Shown: in pieces, positions 12,978 to 38,037 of the stretch
Numbering within the stretch: the first letter of the stretch is position 1
Layout of the letters: the number at the start of each line of letters is the position of its first letter
Notes under the pieces: generated by a model
Seen by the model: only the letters and a program-made list of their open reading frames with translations
What the model was told of the DNA's origin: nothing
Databases searched by the model: none
Translations under genes and position numbers: made by a program
Assembly (NCBI GenBank): GCA_964016885.1
Contig: OZ024753.1
Coordinates: forward strand, 3,162,001-3,226,000
DNA length: 64,000 nucleotides
Direction: 5' to 3'
DNA from: Eledone cirrhosa
Lineage: Eukaryota

Positions 12978-13169
12978 AACGAAGGAAATGTGGTAAGGAA
13001 CCAGATGGACCATAATGCACCAAAGTACTCAATACTTAGGGTAGTAGAGTGGGTAATAGGAACGAATAGGACCCCGACGGCTGAACTCAAGCCGTTTTGA
13101 TGGCTAATTCTGGACCAGAATTAGCCGTTGAAACGGCTTGAGCTCAGCCGTCGGGGTCCTATTCGTTCC

Positions 13170-13172
<3 letters not shown>
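12978..13172 (-). mobile_element. Hairpin element copy 1 (putative PLE pseudo-LTR with inverted arm)
   Basis: Flanked by (TA)n. 13056-13172 is a near-perfect palindrome centred on 13114. Homologous to 16065-16268 and 20861-21028. Confidence 0.75.
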
Positions 13173-13226
<54 letters not shown>

Positions 13227-13230
13227 ATAT

Positions 13231-13405
13231 GTATGTAAAAGGTAAACAGAAATAACAACACAATCAGTACAGTATATGAAAGGATTATATTAGGTTAACG
13301 CTTGAAATAGCAGGAAGAGGGTGTTAATGTTTCAGGTGCTAGTCCTTCATCAGAAGAAAGAATGAGAAATAAGATGAGAAATAAGATGAGAAATAAGATA
13401 GAATT
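13231..13405 (-). mobile_element. Short repeat with hammerhead core (family H2), putative PLE solo pseudo-LTR
   Basis: Minus strand reads CUGAUGA-AGG-acuagca-CCU-GAAAC (13329-13353). Homologous to 21243-21395 and 25411-25527; ends ttaccttttacatac next to (TA)n. Confidence 0.65.
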
Positions 13406-13594
13406 GGAAAAAATGTCTTTAGCTAAAAATAACAGGTCATCTCTTTGGCAATATACAAACATATGTATACATGTAAAAAATACAAGGAAGATGTGTACAT
13501 GTTACAATACAGGAATATGTATTCATGTATGCAATACAGAAAATATGCATACATATGGAAAATATGCAGAAATATGTGTACATGTAGACAATAC

Positions 13595-13715
13595 TTAGAT
13601 ATATACATGTTGACAATACAGTGAAATATGTATATATACATGTTGACAATACAGTGAAATATGTATATATACATGTTGACAATACAGTGAAATATGTATA
13701 TATATGTAGACAATA
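13595..13715. repeat. Minisatellite, 33-bp unit, about 3.5 copies
   Basis: tatatacatgttgacaatacagtgaaatatgta repeated. Confidence 0.9.
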
Positions 13716-14265
13716 CACAGAAATATTTAGTTCTATTTTTTAATATTTAGCCCTAAGATGAACATAGATAATATTGTGAGAAATTCAATTCCTAACTTCT
13801 TTAGTTCTTTCGTTTGTTTTAAACATCATGGCCAAGACCATACTGCATCATAGGTTTTAGATAAAAAAAAATAGGAAAAAACAGCAAATCATTTAGCTTG
13901 TGCATAAAATATATCTTAGTTGTAAATTGTGCTTTTTTTTTTCTATACAACTGAAAAATGGAAAAAAATCTGAAAGAATGACAGCCCAGAAGGAAAGATA
14001 TGAAAGATATATAGAAAAATGTTATATTACAAAATACAAAGAAGAAAATTTATGAAGATCTAGAATACAGGACTTTGGCAATTTCAGCATTAAGTGAAAG
14101 AATATCAAAATCATAGTTTTGAATTGAATGTAATTTGCTTGATAAATTGAATAAGAATTGTTTTCAATGAAAGACATACATATAATATATACCTGTGTAT
14201 ACATTACTGTGTAGGATGAATGAATGTATGTGCATGTATTTGTAAGTATGTAGATGTGTAAATAG

Positions 14266-14268
14266 TAT

Positions 14269-14339
<71 letters not shown>

Positions 14340-14352
14340 TATATATATATAT

Positions 14353-14397
<45 letters not shown>

Positions 14398-14480
14398 TAT
14401 ATATATATATACACACATATATATACACACACACACATATATATATATATATACACACATATATATATATATACACACAC

Positions 14481-14515
<35 letters not shown>

Positions 14516-14552
14516 TATATATATATACACACACATATATATATACACACAC

Positions 14553-14617
<65 letters not shown>

Positions 14618-14752
14618 TATATATATACACATATATATATATATATATATACACACACACGACTGATTTTATATGAATAAATTTATATCTAGGTAAATAG
14701 TGAATATGTTCAAATCTATATATGCTTGTATTTATAAGCATGTGTTTGCACC

Positions 14753-14803
<51 letters not shown>

Positions 14804-14820
14804 TCATTTTACATTCATGC

Positions 14821-14852
<32 letters not shown>

Positions 14853-14919
14853 ATATTTGTATGTATGTGTGTGTGTATATTTGTATGTATGTGTATATAG
14901 ATACATTCATGCATATATA

Positions 14920-14955
<36 letters not shown>

Positions 14956-15021
14956 GATAGATAGATACATTCATACATATGTGTGTATATATTTGTATAT
15001 GGGTGTATATAGATACATTTA

Positions 15022-15060
<39 letters not shown>

Positions 15061-15070
15061 GTACATACAC
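14266..15070. repeat. Compound (TA)n/(CA)n microsatellite block
   Basis: Direct inspection; source of the YI/CV-repeat ORFs. Confidence 0.95.
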
Positions 15071-16021
15071 ATAAATATCTATATAGTGAGAATGGGAGAG
15101 AGAGGGAGAAAGAAACTGTGTTATGAATAAATTTATCTTTACTTGTATATATGTGCAAGTCTTACCTTCTCTATCACTTTATACTTTTGAGAAAATCTGT
15201 GCATATGCATGAATGTGCAAATTATGTGGGGTTGAGACAGTATATATCTGTGTAGAAATGCATAATTTTCATTTTTGTTTTTTAAGTATACATACGTGAG
15301 TATGGATGTGTAAGATGTGATATATGATGTGATAATGTAATGGAACAAGGAAGATGTGTATGTTTTCCTTGTTGTTGTGTGCAACAGACCTTACAGTGAA
15401 AAGTTACTCTGGTTCACTACTTGACAACTACATAATAGCTGAAATAATTGATGGTATCATCTTACATCTTATGTCGAAAATGACATTCTTTTCAAAAGTC
15501 TACATTCAAGAAACGGTGCTATTTTTTTCTTTCCTTTTCCTTTTAAAAATGTTTATTGGTTTTATTGTTTTACCTCTTTGCTATTGCTCAAACATTAAGG
15601 AATATATTCACATATTGAGGTATATAATATGAATAAAATAGAATATAGAAAAACCAAAGTTGAATACAATCATAAAAGTATGTAAGATATTTTACATATA
15701 TGATTACGAAATATTTGTTATATACACCTACATAAAATCGTAATTTGAAAGCTAAAAATACTTATAAGACAACATAAGATTTGAAGGAATGCCAATATGT
15801 TTGTGTGTGTGTAACTTATTTATCGTAGAAATGACTGATATAGAACTAGCACTGTTTCAGTTTGTGGAAATCATCAGATTTCAAGTGAATGATCAGTACT
15901 ACTCTCGGAGAAGTGATCTCAATCTGAAAAATAAATTATGTATGCTTTCTATTTTATGTAATCAACACCATATCTAACTATGGTATATTTCCATTCATCT
16001 ATGGCAAACCATTTTTTCTCG

Positions 16022-16064
<43 letters not shown>

Positions 16065-16069
<5 letters not shown>

Positions 16070-16268
16070 AAAATGTTCACGACCCCGGAGGCAGAGCTCA
16101 AGCCATTTCGACTGCTATTTCTGGACTAGCCAGAAATAGCCGTCGAAACGGCTTGAGCTCTGCCGTCGGGGTCTTGAACATTTTCCTATTACCTACTCTA
16201 CTACCCTAAGTATTGAGTACTCTGGTACGTATGGTCCATCTGGTTCCTTACCACACTTTCTTCGTTAT
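16065..16268 (+). mobile_element. Hairpin element copy 2 (putative PLE pseudo-LTR with inverted arm)
   Basis: Palindrome 16065-16189 centred on loop actag (16125-16129), then a unique tail ending ttcgttat. (TA)n on both sides. Confidence 0.75.
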
Positions 16269-16278
16269 ATATATATAA

Positions 16279-16413
16279 CCAGATACCCCAGTTCTGTTGG
16301 AGGGTAACCACAGTAAAAAAGAGGTAAATACCTTGGTAGAGTATAGTAAATTTTTATTTTATAGAGAAGTGACTTCTACAGGACTAGAACTATTTCATTC
16401 ACATGAAATCATC
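16279..16413 (-). mobile_element. Short repeat with hammerhead remnant (family H3)
   Basis: Minus strand reads GAUGA-UUUC-augu-GAAU-GAAAUAG-uucuaguc-CUGUA-GAAG. Homologous to 43400-43520. Confidence 0.55.
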
Positions 16414-17829
16414 ATCATTTAATGTTTGTTCTTTCTGCTAACAAGAGCTGGATGACTCTTCCCAAAATGAGTAGTACACAAATTGTGCTATTGACCTCTC
16501 AATAAATAGTTGCTACTCTGTTATATCTCAAAATTGTGGTTTAACTTCATGTCAGCTTTGACTGAACAGATAGACACATGGTTGAAGATTTTTCATTAAT
16601 GTTAACATAATTTTAGGGTTTAGTTTACCAAATTCTAATTCAACTCTTGAAGAATATATCAATAGTCAACAAAGGTAAGTAGCATTCATTTTGATGAGTT
16701 GAAGATATATAGAACAACATTTCTATCTACCTTTATAAACTGTTTTAATTGACAATAAGTTCTTTACTATCTTTACAACTTGCAGGTCCAAGTTCATTAG
16801 ATGTGAAACGAGATGTGTGAACTGCTGTATTCCTTCTCAAAGAATGCATCTTACCTGAGGAAAGAGACTTATGAGGTGGAGTGACTATTGATGCTTGTAT
16901 CACTGTCTATTGTCCATCGAAATATCCAGTTAAAACCTGAAAATCTATAGGTTATACTTGGTACTAGTATATAATAATTGAACTAAAAATGTCATTTTGG
17001 CGATTTAATAAGTATTTAATTGTGTGGATGTTTTTTTTTAAATATTCATTTTCTCTTTATTACCAGTATTATTCTCACACTCAAATGCATACAGTACCAT
17101 TAAATTGCAATTAACACAATCACACTCAAATGCATATGAGACAGAATTATCCAGATTTTGTTTTATTTCTTTATTAAATCATCATTTTAACTGTCTCATT
17201 GTGTTAACATTGTATTTTTCCAGTCCAAAGACAGTCAATTTAATGACTTTGGTAAACAGCATTTATTATGAAATGGGAAATTCTATTCAACAAATTTCAG
17301 TTATAACAAATTTTGGAAATAATGAAAATGAGGGAAAGCGGGAGAAATTGGCAGACTTTACTCCCCAGTCTAGGGGGTACATCTCAGATGTGCCTCATGC
17401 AATAACATTGCCATGAACAATAGTCAGTGATACCTGCTTTAATAGCCACTACACCTCACAGGGCTCCCTTCCTAGGATGCACTCCTAATTTTGAATAGTA
17501 TAATAAGCAGTTTGACAACATCAGAGGTCTCAACAGTGACCTACATCAAAATCCCAGCATTTGGCTATCTTCTACTCCTCTACTCTATGGGTATCAGTAC
17601 CTGGGATTAGGGCTGAAGTGAGAGAACATGTCTTAGCATGTATAGACACATGTTAGAGATGTAGTCCCTTTGAACAGGAAAAGGGTTATCCCATCTGGGT
17701 GCTTACTACCACCAAGTAAGTGGTTTGCAGGATCCTGTTCTGATAGGAAACTGGCTGGAGCAAGGTTCCTGTTATTAGTATTATTATTAATACTTTGATA
17801 GTTCAGTCCTTGTTAAATAACAAGGACAT

Positions 17830-17990
17830 ATTTGGGGCCCAAGTTTGTTGACCTCCTCATTGGGGGCTCTGGAGACTGTTCATTTGATTAGGTGAATGGT
17901 AAAAACCTGAGATTAACTCATACACAAGAAGAATATACCAATATCTGAAAAAAGTGCCTTATTTGGAAACAATTTCTTGCTAATGTCTAG
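17830..17990 (+). mobile_element. Possible decayed R4/Dong-type RLE C-terminus
   Basis: Frameshifted remnants resembling IGALGTV and KSALFG, comparable to the end of ORF 32587-33240. Confidence 0.3.
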
Positions 17991-19046
17991 TGTATAACAG
18001 AAAAAAATTGACTTGTCTTCTAGGGGAGCAGCAAGAGTTACAAACAAGAGAGGGAGTAGCCCAAAAGATGGTGAATGAAAACAAACCACAGTGATACCTG
18101 ATAAACATACAAAGTGAGTTTAAACAAAACGATTATTTGAATATATAGACAAATATATAGACAAAAATAAAACAATGAACACTGAAACAGACAATTTATG
18201 TCTATGTTCTTAGGCTACTTTCTAAGTTTAGTGGTTTTGAGCACAGAGCTTAGATGCCTACTAGAATTATCTTCATGTTTGGAATTTTTGACCACATTCA
18301 TGCAAATTTGATATTCAATTCAGTATATTTTGTTATTTTTCTCAATTTGTTTTTATTCATTGTTATTATTCATTGTTATTATTCATCACTTTTTAATGTC
18401 CATTATCCATGCTAGCATGGGTAGGACGGGCTGTCCCTTTGTGGGAGATCAGGTAAGAGGACCGTGTTTTGTTCACACTGAACAGGTCTTGGCTTGGTTT
18501 CTATGGCTGGATGCCCTTCCTAACTCCAACCACATTTACAGTGTGTGCTGAGTGCTTTTTATTGTTACACTTACATGAACACTTTACAGTGTGGGCTGGG
18601 CACATTTTGTTGTGGGAGATTTATAGGAGAGGAGATGGTAGGGAAGCGGTTGCATACTAGACATGCATATGGGAAGGAAGTTCTTCTCTAATACTATTAT
18701 TAAAACTTTTTTAGTCTTCTTTATGAACATTTTCCTCACATAAAAACCCCACACCGTACATCCTCTTAATGTAAACCCTGTGTGGCTAATAAAGAAGCCA
18801 TTATAATTTTGATATATCAGTCATTATTTAAACAGAACATTTTCTCTACTGAACATTAAGCCACTACCTGCAGCCTCAGATATTCAGGACACATCAAAGG
18901 GTCCCTGCCCCTCCTAGTAGCCCCTCTGGAGTGTTCCAAAAAAGGGAATTAGGCTAATTTTCTTTAACCAGCCCTGGAAGCTCTTCAAGACAGCACCCAG
19001 AAAAAACCCTGACACCATGACACCTCCAAATCCACCATTATTATTA

Positions 19047-19620
19047 TTTGGATTGGCAGTACTGGTAGAGCATTGGACAGCAGCATAGTTATGTTCCTTT
19101 ACGATCTGAATTCAAATTTCAGAGGTTAACTTTGCATTTCATCCTTACAGGTTGATAAAATAAAGTACCAGTAATACACTGGATTCAAATGACTTTATCC
19201 TCCCCCAGAATTGTTGGCTTTGTACCTAAATCAGAAACTATTATTGTTATTGTTTGATTGGCAGTATCAGTAAAGCATTGGACACATTCTGAGTTCAAAT
19301 AACAGGGTTCATAAAATAAAGCACCAGTAATGCACTGAGGTCGATTTAATTGACTTTCCCTTCCCCTACAAGTTGCTAGCCTCGTGCCTAAAGTAGAAAC
19401 CATTATTATTATTATCATCATTGGGCGGTTGTTTTGCAGTATCTGTAGAGCGTTAGACTACATGCTTTGCAGTATAGGAGTTATGGCCTTTTACGTTCTG
19501 AGTTCAAATCCCACCAGGATAACTTTGCCTTTTATCCTTACAGGGGTCGATAAAATAAAATACCAGTAATGCACTGGAATAATTTCTGGCCTTGTGCCAA
19601 AAGTAGAAACAATTATTATT
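19047..19620 (+). mobile_element. Cluster of three family A SINEs
   Basis: Three successive ttg(g)cagta...ga(a/g)ttcaaat...taaaataaa..accagtaat units, each ending agaaac(n)attatt. Confidence 0.8.
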
Positions 19621-19944
19621 ATTTTCATTCCATTGCTCTAGAACCCCAACATTTCAAAGCTAGCAATAAAATATTTGGCATTTCAACAAAATGCACCAAC
19701 ATTTTGAGATATGTAAGTATGAGGTTTGAAGTAATATTTTCCTTTTCACTGGTTCTGAATGCCATTCAATGGTTTTATTTAACAGTACATTTTTTTTTGG
19801 TCACAGGAAAACAATGTCAGGTGTTTTGTGCTTACATCTGATAGAAATATTCATCATAATTTTTTATCACACACAAACATATTCAAAGCAGTGTTTTCAG
19901 CAGGGTGCATTATATATATATATGTGTGTGTATGTATTTATATA

Positions 19945-20002
<58 letters not shown>

Positions 20003-20412
20003 TGTATGTATATATATATATATGTGTATGTATGTATGTATGTATATATATATATATACATATATATATATTTATATTGCATTAACATCATACTTCATAC
20101 GAAAATAAATACTTTGATAATATTTCAGAGAATGGAAAAACTTTCGTGTTTTGTCTTTCTTACAAATTCAGTACACACACAGACACATGCACAGAGGCAA
20201 ACACACATGCAGAAACACACAAACACACGTAAACATAGACACACACATATGTGTTAACCCATGTCAGCGTTAGATAAAAAGAATCGAACTTAAAAACCCT
20301 GTTACTCATCATAATCATTATTATTTTAACATGTTTTCATTGCAAGCAAAGGTTGGACTTCTTATTTGACTGGTGTTGGCAAAAGTGAAATACCAGTCAA
20401 CTAAGATCATCA

Positions 20413-20464
<52 letters not shown>

Positions 20465-20491
20465 GTATATACATATATATACACATATATA

Positions 20492-20831
20492 TCATCATCA
20501 TCATTTCATTTTACGTCCACTTTTCCCTGCTTGCAAGGGTGGGACGGGAATAGATTCTGGCTTGATTTCTACAGCTGGATGCCATTCCTAACACCAACCT
20601 CATTTACAGTGAGTGCTGGGTGCTTTTTTGCCGTGGCACCACCACGACCACTTTGCAGTGGAATGATAGGAACCCCAGTCCCTATCATCTCATTTCTACA
20701 GCTGAGTAAACTGGAGCAATGTGAAATAAAGTGTCTTGCTCAAGGAAACAACACATCACCCGGTCTGAGAATTGAACTCACAACCTTTCGATTGCAAGGC
20801 CAATGCTCTAACCACTAAGCCATGTGCCTCC

Positions 20832-20832
<1 letters not shown>
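20492..20832 (-). mobile_element. Family B tRNA-derived SINE with RTE tail
   Basis: Reverse complement of the 7830-8090 head and body. Tail ttttacgtccacttttccctgcttgcaagggtgggacggg matches the end of the RTE at 34855-34895. Confidence 0.9.
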
Positions 20833-20860
<28 letters not shown>

Positions 20861-20862
<2 letters not shown>

Positions 20863-21028
20863 ACGAAGGAAATGTGGTAAGGAACCAGGTGGACCATAAC
20901 GCACCAAAGTACTCAATACTTGAGGTAGTAGAGTGGGTAATAGGAACCAGTAAGACCCCGACAGCTGAGTCCAGAATTAGCCGTCGAAACGGCTTGAGCT
21001 CAGCTGTCGGGGTCTTACTGGTTCCTAT
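20861..21028 (-). mobile_element. Hairpin element copy 3
   Basis: Arms ataggaaccagtaagaccccgacagctgag and ctcagctgtcggggtcttactggttcctat (20940-21028), with (TA)n flanks. Confidence 0.75.
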
Positions 21029-21244: not shown

Positions 21245-21395
21245 ATCCCGCCCGTCCACTCAATCTATCTTATTTCTCATTCTTTCTTCTGATGAAGGAC
21301 TAGCGTCCGAAACTGCTATTTCAAGTGTTAACCTAATATATCCCTTCCATATGCTGTACCGATTGTGTTGTTATTTCTGTTTACCTTTTACATAC
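21243..21395 (+). mobile_element. Family H2 repeat with hammerhead core
   Basis: CUGAUGA(21289-21295)-A-GGAC-uagc-GUCC-GAAAC. The segment after GAAAC is deleted relative to the other copies. Confidence 0.65.
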
Positions 21396-22710: not shown

Positions 22711-23765
22711 TCATCATCATCATCAACGTTTAACGTCCGTGTTCCACGCTTGCATGGGTTTGGACGGGGGTAGTCCCACTTGAGGCAAGAGTGATTGTCT
22801 TGCTCGCATAGGACTGTCTGGCAGGTTTTCTACAGTTGGATGCCCTTCCTAACACCAACCACATTTACAGTGTGGGTCTGGGAGGTTTTTACCGTGTTGC
22901 CTACACGGCCACATTACAGCGTGGACTGTGTGTTTTTTTGTCATGACACCTACACGATCTCATTTGTTTCGGCCTCGATGGCGCGGCACCAACATAACTT
23001 TACATAGAACGGGGTGGTGTGGATGGGGTGGGGGTGGTGGGATGGGGTGTATTTTGTTAGAGATGCCTACTGGCTGGAGTAGGTTTTACTATATATTTAG
23101 GTAAGGCGGGTCTTCTCTGTTACTGAGTACCGCCAAAGGTCTCGGTCCAGTGACATTGTCTTGGAGAGGTGTAAGTGTGTGATGTCTGAGTTTATCAGCT
23201 CGTCCCAGGTTTTTCTAGGTCTGCCTATTCCGTGACTACCGTCTATCTTTATTGCCCTGCACTTTGTTATACAGCTATCAACTTTCATGCGCATCACGTG
23301 TCCATACCAACGTAGCCTTCTCTCGAGTAAACAACATCTGATCCCTCTTATCTCTAATTTTTTCCTTAGTTCGTTTATGCTTTGCCGTTCACGTATATTA
23401 CTGTTACACATCCAGCGGAGCATGCAAGCTTCGTTCCTCTCTAGTCTGCGTATATCCTCTGCACACAATGCCCAGGTCTCACTGCCATGCAGCATTGCTG
23501 TTCGTATGCAGGCATCATACAACCTGCCTTTCATTTTTAGGGAGAACCCTTTAGCAGCTAATAGTGGTATAAGCTCTCTGAACTTTTTCCAACCAGTTCT
23601 GACTCTCGCTACTGTACTTTCAGAGCACCCTCCCCCACTGCTGATTTTATCGCCCAGGTAACGGAAGCTGTCCACTATTTCTATAGAACCCTCTGCGCAA
23701 TTGAAAGAGCTAGTATTTTGTGGGCACTTGCTGCTACTTATTGCACCAGAACACCGGCCACATGT
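22710..23765 (-). mobile_element. 5'-truncated RTE-clade LINE: intact RT C-terminal ORF (23097-23765), ~390-bp 3' UTR and (GAT)n tail
   Basis: FTCGRC...[15 protein letters not shown]...[13 protein letters not shown]...[20 protein letters not shown]...[11 protein letters not shown]...GRPRKTWDE...KTRLT*. Truncated at a (TA)n/(TACA) array. Confidence 0.93.
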
Positions 23766-32252: not shown

Positions 32253-32586
32253 CTGTTTGTGTCTGTTCATATGTATATGTGTGTGTGTTTAGATATATGA
32301 CTGACTGTAGTAAAGGATCCATTTTGGGAACAATATTTGTAATTAGATAGACATTAACTAATGATTACATCAGCAAATTTACAGTTAATTCAATAATGTG
32401 AGTACATTCCATTTACCACAAAACAAAATAAACCATTCAATTAGAAATTAATTACTTGTTGTTTCTGCAGAAATGTCTTCTCAATCTAAATTGTGAAGTA
32501 AAGTATGTATATACATATATATATATATATATACATACATACATATATATATACATACATACATACATACATATATATACATACAT

Positions 32587-33319
32587 ATGACATCACACCT
32601 TGAGGGATATCTCTATGCAATACAGGAACAAGAACTCCCTACCAAATATCTGCTGCACAAAAGGGGAGGGCCATCAGCTGACAATAAATGTAGGCTATGT
32701 AAAACAAAGATCGAAGATGTAAGCCACATTGTTGCCAACTGCGAAAGAATGTCATCTCGCTACTACCTCCCCATGAGACACGATGGGATAGCTAGAACCA
32801 TCTGGAACGCACTTCGGAAAACAAAATTAACAACAAACGAGGAAGAATATATTGAGACAGATGGCACTAAGGAATACTGGTGGAACCTGAAAATAAAAAC
32901 TGCCACCAAATTAAAGCACAACCTGCTTGATATTGCTGTTTGGGACCACACATTGAAAACGTGTTCTGTTGTGGAGATCAGCTGCCCACTTGATGTAAAC
33001 GTTGTCAGAAAAATACAGGAGAAGGAGGACATCTACGGACCATTGATGAGGAGCTTACAAATCCAGTATCTAAGATACACCTTTAGCTTCATACCCATCA
33101 TTATTGGAGCTATGGGTTATATACCAACCCGCTTGGACCAAAGTATGACTGAACACAGCTCCCTAATTCATAGTCTACAAATGGCTGTGATAGCTGGCAC
33201 CTTCAAAATTTGCAAAACATTCTTGCGATTCAAGGGATGACAATTTCTTTTCTTTTACAACCTTGCCACCAGGAAGGTGGCCGGTCAAAAAAATATACTC
33301 GAAATTAAGAAAAAGAGAT

Positions 33320-34438: not shown

Positions 34439-34457
34439 ATATATATATATATAATAT

Positions 34458-34915
34458 ATGAGGAGCGCGATGCTGCATGGTAGTGAGACATGGGCAGCAA
34501 CCGCAGAGGATATGCGACGGCTGGAGAGAAATGAGGCAAGCATGCTCCGTTGGATGTGCAGTGTAAATGTGCGTGAACGACCCAGCTTAAATGTGTTGAG
34601 AGAGAAACTGTGTCTGAGAGGGATAGAATGTAGTGTACGGGAGAGGAGACTGATGTGGTATGGACATGTGATGCGCATGGAGGATGACCGATGGGTGAAG
34701 AAGTGCCAGGAAATGCCAGTTGAAGGAAGACGTGGTAGAGGTAGACCACGAAAAACATGGGCGGAGGTGGTGAGAACAGACCTCAGATCATTGAAGCTCA
34801 CGGTGGAGATGACGAGGGACCGTGACGAGTGGAGAGATGCTGTGCTGAATAAGACCCGTCCCACCCTTGCAAGCAGGGAAAAGCGGACGTAAAATGATGA
34901 TGATGATGATGATGA
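34458..34915 (+). mobile_element. 5'-truncated RTE LINE (second family); ORF runs into the (GAT)n tail
   Basis: AMLHGSETW...[11 protein letters not shown]...[11 protein letters not shown]...[13 protein letters not shown], then (atg)n. Confidence 0.92.
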
Positions 34916-35092: not shown

Positions 35093-35375
35093 ATACATAT
35101 ATATATATGGTTAGCTATACTCTTTGTTGTTCTCCTGTCTCACTCGCTTTACGCGTTTTAATTGTCCTAATAACTTATTTTGGTTATTATTGCACCGAAG
35201 TGAGATATATGATTTTTAATGCAATGAAATATCTATGATCTTCGGCAAATCACTGATGAGGGACTTATTTTATTACATGTTATCCATGTGCTACCTGCAG
35301 TATTTTTCTCTATATTTTAATATATATATATATATATATAATATAAGATCAAAAGATGGTTAAAGGAGTTCAATA

Positions 35376-35446
35376 TATTTTATTATGCGCATTTCAAAAA
35401 CAAACATCATCAAACAATAATATTTGTGTTTTCATCAGATAAAACA
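35376..35446 (-). ncRNA. Type I hammerhead ribozyme (PLE-associated)
   Basis: Exact reverse complement of 37843-37913. Confidence 0.8.
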
Positions 35447-36663
35447 GGAGAACATGATATGAAGGCTAAAAAAAACACTTGTTGATAGTGCAGTTTTAAA
35501 TCAACATATGAAAAGTGGTTTTAGATTGATGTGTGATATTGGGAAAAATATTTTATTTAGAGAGGGGGGGAGAGAAAAGGATGAAAAGGGAAGGAGATGA
35601 GAGGGAGAGATGGGTGATAGAGAGAAAGAGATAGTTTTTATAACAGAGAGGAGATATATATTATATAGAGGGGTTGAAAACCGTTGGAAGATACTGTATA
35701 AATTAAAAATTTTGAAAATTAACGAAGGGAGGATATGTGCGAGGAAAAAATATATTATATTTAGGGAGGGGTGGGGGTGGAAAGGATGAAAAAAAGGGGA
35801 GGAGATGAGAGTGAAGGTGGAAAGGGAGAGATGGGTGATAGAGAGAAAGAGATAGTTTTTATAACTGAGAAAAAGATATAATGTTTTAATATAGAGAGGT
35901 TGGGAACCGTTGGAAGATAATGTATAAATTAAAGAAATTTGAAAATTAACGAAGGGAAATTATGTATGGAGATAGAGAGAAAAAAATAACGAAGGGAGAT
36001 TATGTATGGAGATAGAGAGAAAAAAAAATAATAATTGTGGGTGAATATTCAAAAGGAGAAATGTAGGAATCTTAAAATTAGCAAAGAGAAAATGTTTATG
36101 TATAGAATTTGAGAAAAATTTATATTGAATTCATATGTATTAATAATGAGTTTGTTGATGGGGAGAAAAAAATAATAATAATAAATTAAGGATGAAATTG
36201 AGATTAAAAAGATTTATGATAGAGAGAAAAAATAATAATGATTGCGGATGAATACTCAAAATGTCAAAAACAAATGTTATTGTTTTACGAAGAGATATAA
36301 TGAGGGTGATGAGTAAACGGGTATTATAGAGTGTATAATGCCCTTTAAAGTAAGGTAGATGGGTATATTTTAAAGAATATATGAGTATATATTAAAAAAA
36401 TATATATAATAATAAATTAAGGATGAAATTGAGATTAAAAAGATTTATGATAGAGGGAAAAAAATAATAATGATTGCGGATGAATATTCAAAATGTCAAA
36501 AACAAATGTTATTGTTTTACGAGAAGATAGGATGAGGTAAATGAATAAACGAGTACTATAGAGTGTATAATGCCCTTTAAAGTAAGGTAGATGGGTATAT
36601 TTTAAAGAGGTGTATGTATATGTGCCTTTGAGAAAAGATTCTAAATTGATAAAGAATTGAATA

Positions 36664-36960
36664 TTAACTGTATACTTTGTGAAAAGTTCTATGGAATTTA
36701 TGAAGGCAGATGGAAAACAAATCCGAGCGTCTATTTATTATGGATTCTAGGTTAGAGATAATGGTAAATTTTTCATTTAGGCAGAGATTACAGATTTTAG
36801 ATAGAGAACTGTTCAAGTACGAGGATGCAGAAGAAATCTTTTTCCAAAAGATGTTATATTTAATGTTTTTGTCTTTTAAGGACCATATGAGTTCTGAGAG
36901 AGCAGTGTTAGTTCTTTTAAGTTTGTATTTGAAAGATGAATGATGATTATAATGATGAGT
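36664..36960 (-). pseudogene. C-terminal ~98 aa of a PLE GIY-YIG endonuclease (no start codon; absent from ORF track)
   Basis: Manual translation: YNHHSSFKYKLKRTNTALSELIWSLKDKNIKYNIFWKKISSASSYLNSSLSKICNLCLNEKFTIISNLESIINRRSDLFSICLHKFHRTFHKVYS*. Matches the recalled PLE pattern NH..SF..T.LS..IW.LK..W..CNLC..EK...N.R.EL...C.H. Confidence 0.8.
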
Positions 36961-37842
36961 ATAATACCCGTTTACTCATCACCCTCATTATATCTCTTCG
37001 TAAAACAATAACATTTGTTTTTGACATTTTGAGTATTCATCCGCAATCATTATTATTTTTTCTCTCTATCATAAATCTTTTTAATCTCAATTTCATCCTT
37101 AATTTATTATTATTATTTTTTTCTCCCCATCAACAAACTCATTATTAATACATATGAATTCAATATAAATTTTTCTCAAATTCTATACATAAACATTTTC
37201 TCTTTGCTAATTTTAAGATTCCTACATTTCTCCTTTTGAATATTCACCCACAATTATTATTTTTTTTTTCTCTCTATCTCCATACATAATCTCCCTTCGT
37301 TATTTTTTTCTCTCTATCTCCATACATAATTTCCCTTCGTTAATTTTCAAATTTCTTTAATTTATACATTATCTTCCAACGGTTCCCAACCTCTCTATAT
37401 TAAAACATTATATCTTTTTCTCAGTTATAAAAACTATCTCTTTCTCTCTATCACCCATCTCTCCCTTTCCACCTTCACTCTCATCTCCTCCCCTTTTTTT
37501 CATCCTTTCCACCCCCACCCCTCCCTAAATATAATATATTTTTTCCTCGCACATATCCTCCCTTCGTTAATTTTCAAAATTTTTAATTTATACAGTATCT
37601 TCCAACGGTTTTCAACCCCTCTATATAATATATATCTCCTCTCTGTTATAAAAACTATCTCTTTCTCTCTATCACCCATCTCTCCCTCTCATCTCCTTCC
37701 CTTTTCATCCTTTTCTCTCCCCCCCTCTCTAAATAAAATATTTTTCCCAATATCACACATCAATCTAAAACCACTTTTCATATGTTGATTTAAAACTGCA
37801 CTATCAACAAGTGTTTTTTTTAGCCTTCATATCATGTTCTCC

Positions 37843-37913
37843 TGTTTTATCTGATGAAAACACAAATATTATTGTTTGATGATGTTTGTTTTTGAAATGC
37901 GCATAATAAAATA
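37843..37913 (+). ncRNA. Type I hammerhead ribozyme (PLE-associated)
   Basis: Stem I UGUUUUAU/AUAAAAUA; core CUGAUGA at 37851-37857; long stem II; GAAA at 37894-37897; palindromic stem III AUGCGCAU; predicted cleavage after AUA at 37905. Confidence 0.8.
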
Positions 37914-38037
37914 TATTGAACTCCTTTAACCATCTTTTGATCTTATATTATGCATACTCCAGTCCCACAAACTGTAGAGTGCTTCTTATCCGATATCTGC
38001 ATTGCTTTATTGTACTACAATAAAACTCACCTCCTAC

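Follow-up and report, generated by a model that had tools for sequence, protein, structure and literature searches.

In the 64,000-nucleotide window of the Eledone cirrhosa genome analyzed here, three short hairpins (12978-13172, 16065-16268 and 20862-21028) have outer arms that differ between copies but match within each copy. How do such hairpins arise? All three are stubs, arranged head to head, of a Penelope-like retrotransposon (PLE) that has the motifs of the Hydra clade. As judged from sequence comparisons, each probably consists (with odds of roughly two in three) of two cDNAs, primed at element positions +60 and +140, that ran off the capped (or cleaved) 5' end of an RNA and were joined.

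All three copies lie where the original prediction placed them, with a (TA)n tract on either side of each, and copy 2 is in the opposite orientation (Table 1). Each is made up of an 80-nucleotide single-copy part and a hairpin, and folding energies range from -83 to -124 kcal/mol. The outer arms read as first described and have exact partner complements in copies 1 and 3, but copy 2 has one mismatch (cacg versus caag). The GAAA, closed stem III, GUC and GGGGUC of a hammerhead are also found in the stubs as described, and CUGANGA is absent from all three. Without this 5' catalytic core, each stub holds only half a ribozyme. The turn of copy 3 is asymmetric, its tail-side arm ending after 28-30 nucleotides. 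In one read run, of unspecified type, depth changes stepwise at the turn and joints that switch strand occur there, an observation that says nothing on expression.

Table 1. Parts of the three hairpin copies in the window
Feature	Position	Strand	Remarks
Copy 1, 80-nt tail	12978..13056	-	element positions ~+61 to +140, confined to one arm
Copy 1, tail-side arm	13057..13114	-	putative cDNA primed at +140; CCTATTCG variant of CCTACTCG subfamily
Copy 1, no-tail arm	13115..13172	+	putative cDNA primed at +60; carries hammerhead 3' half
Copy 1, hammerhead half	GAAA 13130-13133, then stem III; predicted cut after 13152	+	
Copy 2, no-tail arm	16066..16127	-	CTTGAACATT subfamily; full to putative RNA start (+1)
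Copy 2, tail-side arm	16130..16188	+	GAAA 16145-16148; predicted cut after 16167
Copy 2, 80-nt tail	16189..16267	+	
Copy 3, 80-nt tail	20862..20940	-	young CTTACTGG subfamily, shared with intact parent in L318
Copy 3, shortened tail-side arm	20941..20969	-	joined via GAG overlap 20967-20969
Copy 3, no-tail arm	20967..21028	+	full to +1 (A at 20968); G at -1 within overlap
Copy 3, hammerhead half of no-tail arm	GAAA 20986-20989; predicted cut after 21008	+	

The core of the central palindrome has at least 15,732 exact matches genome-wide and a reversed control pattern has none, so the hairpins in the window are not chance structures. All stub subfamilies in the window have long parents, and full-length parents with direct pLTRs are found at the loci L185 (direct repeat of 233 bp, 96% identity) and L318 (495 bp, 99% identity, plus an inverted copy). 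The sequence of the 80-nucleotide tail continues in full-length copies into the 5' UTR and ORF. At L318 an open frame of 718 amino acids encodes an RT followed at the C terminus by a GIY-YIG endonuclease, with YRDD and NVIYQ..KAYIG present, and the link of non-inverted copies to a PLE reading frame that had been predicted is thus found. Hydra-clade features of this frame are HSDKTG (DKT), CNCPDRSIC (the CxCx5C linker) and CNLCSEE..LLNKKDELVTACKH (CxxC and CxH beside E and N). RLRWR occupies the place that matches the N-terminal RWK site, which reads RMRWK in Hydra-1_Obim. A Pfam search assigned the parent protein to no family with a useful E-value; Atlas neighbors at 0.96-0.99 include members that carry HTH_animal, GIY-YIG and RVT_1. 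The parent has the single ORF for RT and GIY-YIG, the pLTR layout and the (TA)n setting of EN+ PLEs of the Hydra clade.

The Hydra clade comprises C-terminal EN+ PLEs, and Hydra-1_Obim is the nearest family listed (Craig et al. 2021, PMC8557442). The likeness extends over the single RT-then-GIY-YIG frame, the DKT, linker and CxxC plus CxH motifs, the (TA)n target and a hammerhead within the pLTR. Set against Hydra-1_Obim by eye, the Eledone element is a different family. It has RWR instead of RWK, about 3.1 kb between pLTRs compared with a 2,507-bp consensus, and a U3-A8 core and a loop II spanning about 40 nucleotides where Hydra-1_Obim has a C3-G8 core and an 8-nucleotide loop. Stubs also outnumber long ends here.

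Long copies carry a complete motif that is classified as a type I hammerhead within the parent pLTR, with self-cleavage predicted after +41. The motif, with the U3-A8 core UUGANAA, has 5,870 pattern matches; N7 was left free, and position 8 is A in almost every one of the 100 listed. Stem I is ACCCC and stem II is CGGCTA/TAGCCG. Such a hammerhead had been expected in non-inverted copies, and stems I and II are near those foreseen, but the core is not CUGANGA. A strict CTGANGA search gave 39 matches; each of the 30 loci examined is a junction product or a chimera. It suggested a parent lacking a ribozyme, a view that the relaxed core search overturned. A spliced hammerhead proved unnecessary as an explanation. 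Rfam models detected no hammerhead in the window or in a full-length copy. Paired cells amount to 97.8% of the hammerhead alignment compared with 19-57% when it is slid, for sequences selected with a pattern that already fixes many paired bases. There are 0 two-sided compensatory pairs among 30 sequences at 90% identity. The turn of the stubs sits in loop II, about 10 nucleotides to the 5' side of stem II's 3' strand.

Arms agree at a diagnostic site in 98.8% of copies. Discordant arms number 187 in a total of 15,732 (4,250 being AAAT/AAAT), compared with about 6,300 expected by hand arithmetic. In samples with imperfect de-duplication, from which most stubs of the copy 3 type dropped out because their short arm has no anchor, outer tags are identical in 78 of 115 copies versus 13.4 on shuffling, 28 of 28 and 12 of 13 centers are distinct, and 111 of 122 stubs carry the tail on a single arm. 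Young copies, 1.7% apart, have 21 centers in 29. A count of shared rare variants (29 versus 5.7 when shuffled) was set aside on account of shifted anchors and CpG sites present in several rows. Because arms agree within a copy and centers vary, the hairpin is generated afresh at each insertion, as the original prediction proposed. Chimeras with arms of mixed subfamilies are rare (L312 and one copy in L118), so concordance alone cannot tell two cDNAs from one folded cDNA.

Outer ends are fixed at +60 and +140, and inner ends pile up at +1, with a minority at +42. A G precedes AGTCCAG on both arms at 357 loci, compared with 5 for an A control. This extra G is present in 21 of 100 arms of an unselected list (counted by hand), and two lists of 100 long arms each contain no case of it. 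RTs copy the RNA cap as G, which is assumed to apply to the PLE enzyme. A templated T is found at -1 in 65 of 100 intact arms; with this T in most arms, starts would need to spread from +1 to about -5, a point against the two-cDNA reading. In one subfamily +1 falls in TCAGT, which we take to be an initiator-like word.

A single cDNA could instead fold back and prime itself, the resulting hairpin then being opened and trimmed at one end by the endonuclease at +60. The concordance of arms favors this route, an ATT stands at +60 and matches the motif at which the endonuclease of another PLE cuts, and self-priming has been argued for Adineta PLEs (PMC3846280). However, the no-tail arm is equally often the longer one (in 7 of 13 position-ordered loci and 17 of 28 loci resembling copy 2), and chimeric arms exist. 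Many of the 357 loci have one base between complete arms, a loop too small to prime. An extra G on the sense strand also implies a sense template, whereas the published model needs an antisense one. Fold-back is unlikely on these grounds, and self-priming of one cDNA does not yield a one-sided tail where either arm can be the longer. Its initiation at a palindromic stem II, as first envisaged, does not agree with a turn in loop II.

Two joined cDNAs also accommodate a second set of inner ends. Two patterns retrieve 68 and 143 stubs that reach inward only about as far as the predicted cut. Both arms end at the scissile bond, with filler that is mostly A/T, in 24 of 50 and 22 of 50 of those listed (hand counts), and a single A/T is the filler in 13 of 50 listed from the set of 143. 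All 20 cut-site stubs that were fetched have a one-sided tail and (TA)n flanks. Stubs with no filler (11 of 50 and 20 of 50 listed) are possible deletions through a CG overlap, and in 15 of 50 and 8 of 50 listed one arm runs past the site. In a separate list of short stubs, 20 of 50 continue past the cut, and a GG overlap is compatible with many of the rest.

These inner ends might, however, be places where the RT stalled on RNA structure while making two cDNAs, the G being a cap-independent addition. A single base separates the predicted cut from the foot of stem III, a place at which an RT could stall, and we count this against our proposal; in addition, RNA start, cap and cleavage are all read from genomic DNA alone. 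Stalling does not explain why +1 falls within loop II, past stem II rather than at a stem foot, or why the added base is site-specific, G at +1 and a single A/T at the cut. The putative initiator at +1 in one subfamily also speaks against it, and we consider this explanation quite improbable.

In the preferred reading, with two cDNAs on a capped or cleaved sense RNA, the pLTR promoter would initiate capped RNA within loop II, at +1. Such RNA would include no more of the ribozyme than its 3' half. The RT-endonuclease would nick both (TA)n strands, and one cDNA would be primed at +60 and another at +140, with a single RNA or source locus serving both in most cases. Each cDNA would run off the cap, copied as the extra G, and the two 3' ends would be joined end to end or via overlaps of 1-5 nucleotides. 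Read-through RNA would contain the whole ribozyme. After self-cleavage its 3' piece could yield the shorter stubs ending at GGGGUC, and uncut read-through RNA could yield long and full-length copies. This reading draws on the one-sided tail, the finding that either arm can be longer, the chimeric arms and the precedent of the PAc PLE, which is reported to extend both strands in vitro, beginning at two internal start sites (PMC11167929).

The hairpins could also form a non-autonomous family in which master stubs are copied in their entirety, centers being reshaped later by palindrome repair and arms homogenized by conversion. Copy 3 has five further copies that are 100% identical, asymmetric center included. 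However, six arm subfamilies share its junction, which occurs at 49 loci, 37 in one orientation and 12 in the other (counted by hand), and on this ground inheritance is rejected as the reason for six identical loci. The diversity of centers among young copies, the long parents of every stub subfamily in the window and a G at one fixed position, where repair would not place it, likewise leave this explanation largely refuted and very improbable. A functional hairpin element cleaved in trans, suggested earlier, is unsupported. A DNA MITE or a rolling-hairpin element whose inverted ends are fixed, for which TA context, a long inverted repeat and centers in flip and flop form might argue, is refuted by the link to an RT-encoding PLE whose pLTR supplies the sequence, by repeats that are not terminal, the 80-nucleotide tail lying outside them at one end, and by the diversity of centers.

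Joined cDNAs on sense RNA can be set beside several published systems. EN+ PLEs with an inverted, 5'-truncated pLTR and tail (PMC8557442, PMC3846280) are alike in their head-to-head arrangement and one-sided tail, but the tail is 80 nucleotides here and 30-40 there, and arms here are about 60 nucleotides and end at fixed points. The published account is self-priming on an antisense template (PMC3846280); the data here favor two cDNAs on capped sense RNA. In PAc (Poseidon, from Anolis), two internal RT starts bound the tail, both target strands are extended and a hammerhead lies upstream of the start sites (PMC11167929). Cleavage of PAc is described there as unnecessary for insertion, with no RNA reads ending at the cut, whereas a minority of genomic stubs here end at the predicted cut. 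The minimal hammerhead of Schistosoma Cercyon (PMC4209133) shares U3-A8, the G10.1-C11.1 pair, a 5-bp helix I and a long helix II. Unlike Cercyon, helix III here is closed (5 bp, with a near-palindromic loop) and loop II holds the putative transcription start. Non-LTR retrozymes (bioRxiv 10.64898/2026.07.22.740005) are likewise non-coding, PLE-derived and hammerhead-related. They consist of tandem units with complete ribozymes, and the stubs, which are single, inverted and half-ribozyme, were rejected as members.

The head-to-head architecture is already known. The origin of such PLE inversions is posed as an open question (PMC3846280), as is the in vivo action of the pLTR hammerhead (PMC4209133, PMC8557442, PMC11167929). 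Searches of literature outside subscription journals yielded no earlier account of stubs as a read-out of PLE RNA ends. A wider interpretation, which we advance tentatively and at slightly less than even odds, is that germ-line processing of PLE RNA is preserved in the stubs as a fossil record at base resolution. The promoter in loop II would let only read-through RNA form the ribozyme, the ribozyme would cut in vivo at a point upstream of the two RT start sites and thereby limit full-length transposition, and all EN+ PLE inversions would result from twin priming on capped sense RNA, not from self-priming on antisense RNA. The family offers base-level predictions (a capped start at +1, a cut after +41 and priming ends at +60 and +140), and the intact young parent is material for testing them in vitro. 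A point for genome annotation is that a retrotransposon has left, as by-products, more than 15,000 short hairpins resembling MITEs or miRNA precursors.

The three hairpins of the window (copies 1, 2 and 3) lie where the original prediction placed them, each between (TA)n tracts and each consisting of an 80-nt single-copy part, the tail, followed by the hairpin. Copy 2 is oriented opposite to copies 1 and 3, and mutual likeness is 79-84%. As predicted, each copy has an outer-arm sequence of its own, matched by its partner arm (with a single mismatch there in copy 2), and the copies carry the 3' half of a hammerhead without its 5' core. In the 3.0-Gb genome, 15,732 sites match the central palindrome exactly, compared with none for the reversed control pattern.

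Features of the window (strand in brackets as +/- where assigned)
Feature	Position	Strand	Remark
Copy 1	12978-13172		hairpin
Copy 2	16065-16268		hairpin
Copy 3	20862-21028		hairpin
Hammerhead-like core, another repeat family	~13325-13353	-	CTGATGAAGGAC..GTCC/CCTGAAAC; near copy 1
Hammerhead-like core, another repeat family	21289-21320	+	CTGATGAAGGAC..GTCC/CCTGAAAC; near copy 3
Fragment	23097-23760	-	presumed RTE-type LINE frame, by resemblance
Fragment	32497-33240	-	presumed RTE-type LINE frame, by resemblance
Fragment	34455-34892	+	presumed RTE-type LINE frame, by resemblance
Different PLE remnant	35333-37956		arms 696 nt, 100% complementary, 1,232 nt apart
GIY-YIG-like C-terminus of that remnant	36664-36975	-	
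Minimal C3-G8 hammerhead motif, palindromic stem III	near 37850-37915		also in the mirror arm of the remnant

Such stubs, as these short head-to-head copies are called here, are almost certainly the ends of a Penelope-like retrotransposon (PLE). Starting from a locus whose arm is unusually long, we obtained 932 candidate longer copies which, read inward, contain a 3' UTR and GIY-YIG C-terminus and then a reverse transcriptase (RT), bearing out the predicted linkage to a PLE reading frame. In L185, which is full-length and has direct terminal repeats (pLTRs; 233 bp, 96%), the sequence of the 80-nt part runs on into the 5' UTR and an ATG. L318 belongs to copy 3's subfamily, is young and adjoins an inverted copy; it has an open frame of 718 aa and pLTRs that are 99% alike. 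It shares DKT, CxCx5C, CxxC and CxH, and TA targeting with the Hydra clade as outlined in section 11 of PMC8557442, and differs, judged by eye, from the published Hydra-1_Obim. Inverted truncated copies with a one-sided tail are a known PLE insertion pattern, according to passages of PMC3846280 and PMC8557442, and the stubs share it with EN+ PLEs. Numbering from the A of AGTCCAG (+1) places the predicted cut after +41, the short end at +60, the tail end at +140 and the ATG at +235.

Non-inverted copies had been expected to contain a hammerhead with a CTGANGA core; the complete motif is present, with UUGANAA as its core. A strict CUGANGA search yields 39 matches, of which the 30 that were read are either junction products or chimeric with other families, and none in full-length L185. 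A relaxed search gives the actual order: ACCCC, UUGANAA, G, stem II, C, GAAA, a 5-bp stem III, GUC and GGGGU, with a stem II of 6-9 bp and a loop II of ~40 nt. This is the core type of the U3-A8 variant described in a passage of PMC4209133; its motif has 5,870 matches genome-wide, and N7 differs among subfamilies. In an alignment of 30 copies, 97.8% of cells are paired, compared with 19-57% when slid. Because these 30 were chosen by a pattern and contain no two-sided pair changes, covariation lends no support to the hammerhead. The stubs turn inside loop II rather than at the palindromic stem II that had been proposed, and retain the 3' half alone. Some members of copy 1's subfamily (L236, L237 and L253) have the core CTGAGAA, with C3 opposite A8, which is predicted to cut less well; others of that subfamily keep TTGAGAA.

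The reading that we prefer, at a probability of about 0.68, is drawn from sequence comparison. Transcription would begin inside loop II; two cDNAs, twin-primed at (TA)n, would run off the RNA and be joined. Read-through RNA would give long copies when uncut and shorter stubs when cut. The element itself is of a known kind; its record of RNA ends is unusually clear and testable. A search of the openly accessible literature retrieved no description of stubs marked by a cap or a cut, and passages of an octopus repeat annotation (PMC13282606) make no mention of such hairpins.

The turn may mark a capped RNA start. In 3,315 loci, neither arm is truncated before +1. Of the 100 arms in the 50 loci listed, 21 have G at -1, 65 have T, 12 have C and 2 have A (hand count); among the matches listed for long arms, G at -1 occurs in 0/100 in each of two lists, the second spanning both main subfamily groups. 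G is found on both arms in 357 loci, compared with five for A. Several T-extended arms stop 3-5 nt further up, again with a G. Reverse transcriptases can copy the cap as an extra G. One subfamily has TCAGT at +1, which we take to be an initiator-like word.

Were the ribozyme to cut in vivo, stubs ending at GGGGUC would be expected from its 3' product. Short stubs of this kind number 68 in copy 1's subfamily and 143 in copy 3's. Among the matches listed for each (hand count), both arms stop at the scissile bond with filler in 24/50 and 22/50, respectively, and without it in 11/50 and 20/50, which a CG overlap could also produce; one arm extends past the bond in 15/50 and 8/50. Filler consists mostly of A/T (13/50 listed for copy 3's subfamily have one A or one T alone), in contrast to the G at +1. 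All 20 stubs fetched of the 68 have the usual tail and flanks. In a wider set of 314 short stubs, 20/50 listed pass the cut, many through collapse of the stem III palindrome. Alternatively, RT may be halted by stem III, whose foot sits one base from the predicted cut. Passages of PMC4209133 and PMC8557442 describe in vivo ribozyme function as lacking evidence, and one in PMC11167929 states that RNA ends at the cut were not found. Among 20 cut-site stubs, all four single-base fillers (L283, L285, L290 and L292) are A with the tail on the left, hinting that the added base goes to one of the two cDNAs.

The tail is confined to a single arm in 111/122 copies; 90 loci came from queries that contained the tail. 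Of the two arms, the one lacking the tail extends further inward in 7/13 position-ordered and 17/28 copy-2-like loci. A folded single cDNA cannot account for these two observations without further cutting. In many loci, both arms are complete and one base separates them. Of the predicted fold-back or self-priming, the new hairpin at each insertion is supported and simple fold-back is not. A folded-back hairpin that is later opened and trimmed is a less probable route; a passage of PMC3846280 attributes inversions to self-priming, with antisense RNA as template, and treats the question as open. According to PMC11167929, the protein of another PLE extends both strands of the target, starting at two internal sites that bound the tail. 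We infer a pair of cDNAs, one primed at +60 and the other at +140.

Inversion points, once mapped, agree with hairpins generated anew: centres, the turns between arms, are distinct in 28/28 copy-2-like and 12/13 position-ordered loci. A young subfamily whose tails differ by 1.7% has 21 centres in 29 copies; nine of these copies, retrieved with copy 3, have the same junction. Inheritance, suggested by five other copies identical to copy 3, is outweighed by the presence of its GAG-overlap junction in 49 loci and six arm subfamilies (37 on the tail side, 12 on the other; hand count), the identical copies arising because this junction recurs on a young template.

The predicted within-copy matching of arms also extends across the genome. 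A diagnostic base reads AAAT on both arms in 4,250 of the 15,732 copies and is discordant in 187, compared with ~6,300 under random pairing (hand arithmetic, the other concordant class being obtained without a direct count). Twelve discordant loci were fetched, and because outer tags are single-subfamily in 8/8 parsed, these look like later point changes. Outer tags are identical in 78/115 copies, compared with 13.4 on shuffling, and most of the remaining 37 differ by 1-2 bases. Two copies, L312 and one in L118, carry outer tags of two different subfamilies. In the single case of L312 (135-345), the inner part of the tail arm and the segment following GGGGTC are of different subfamilies; the change lies near the predicted cut and may reflect a jump to another template from one subfamily's cut RNA.

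Other hammerhead-bearing families are joined in sense to the 3' half of the stub family at five loci (L091, L099, L105, L111 and L113), suggesting template switching between PLE families; the join in L099 lies at a common CAGAA.
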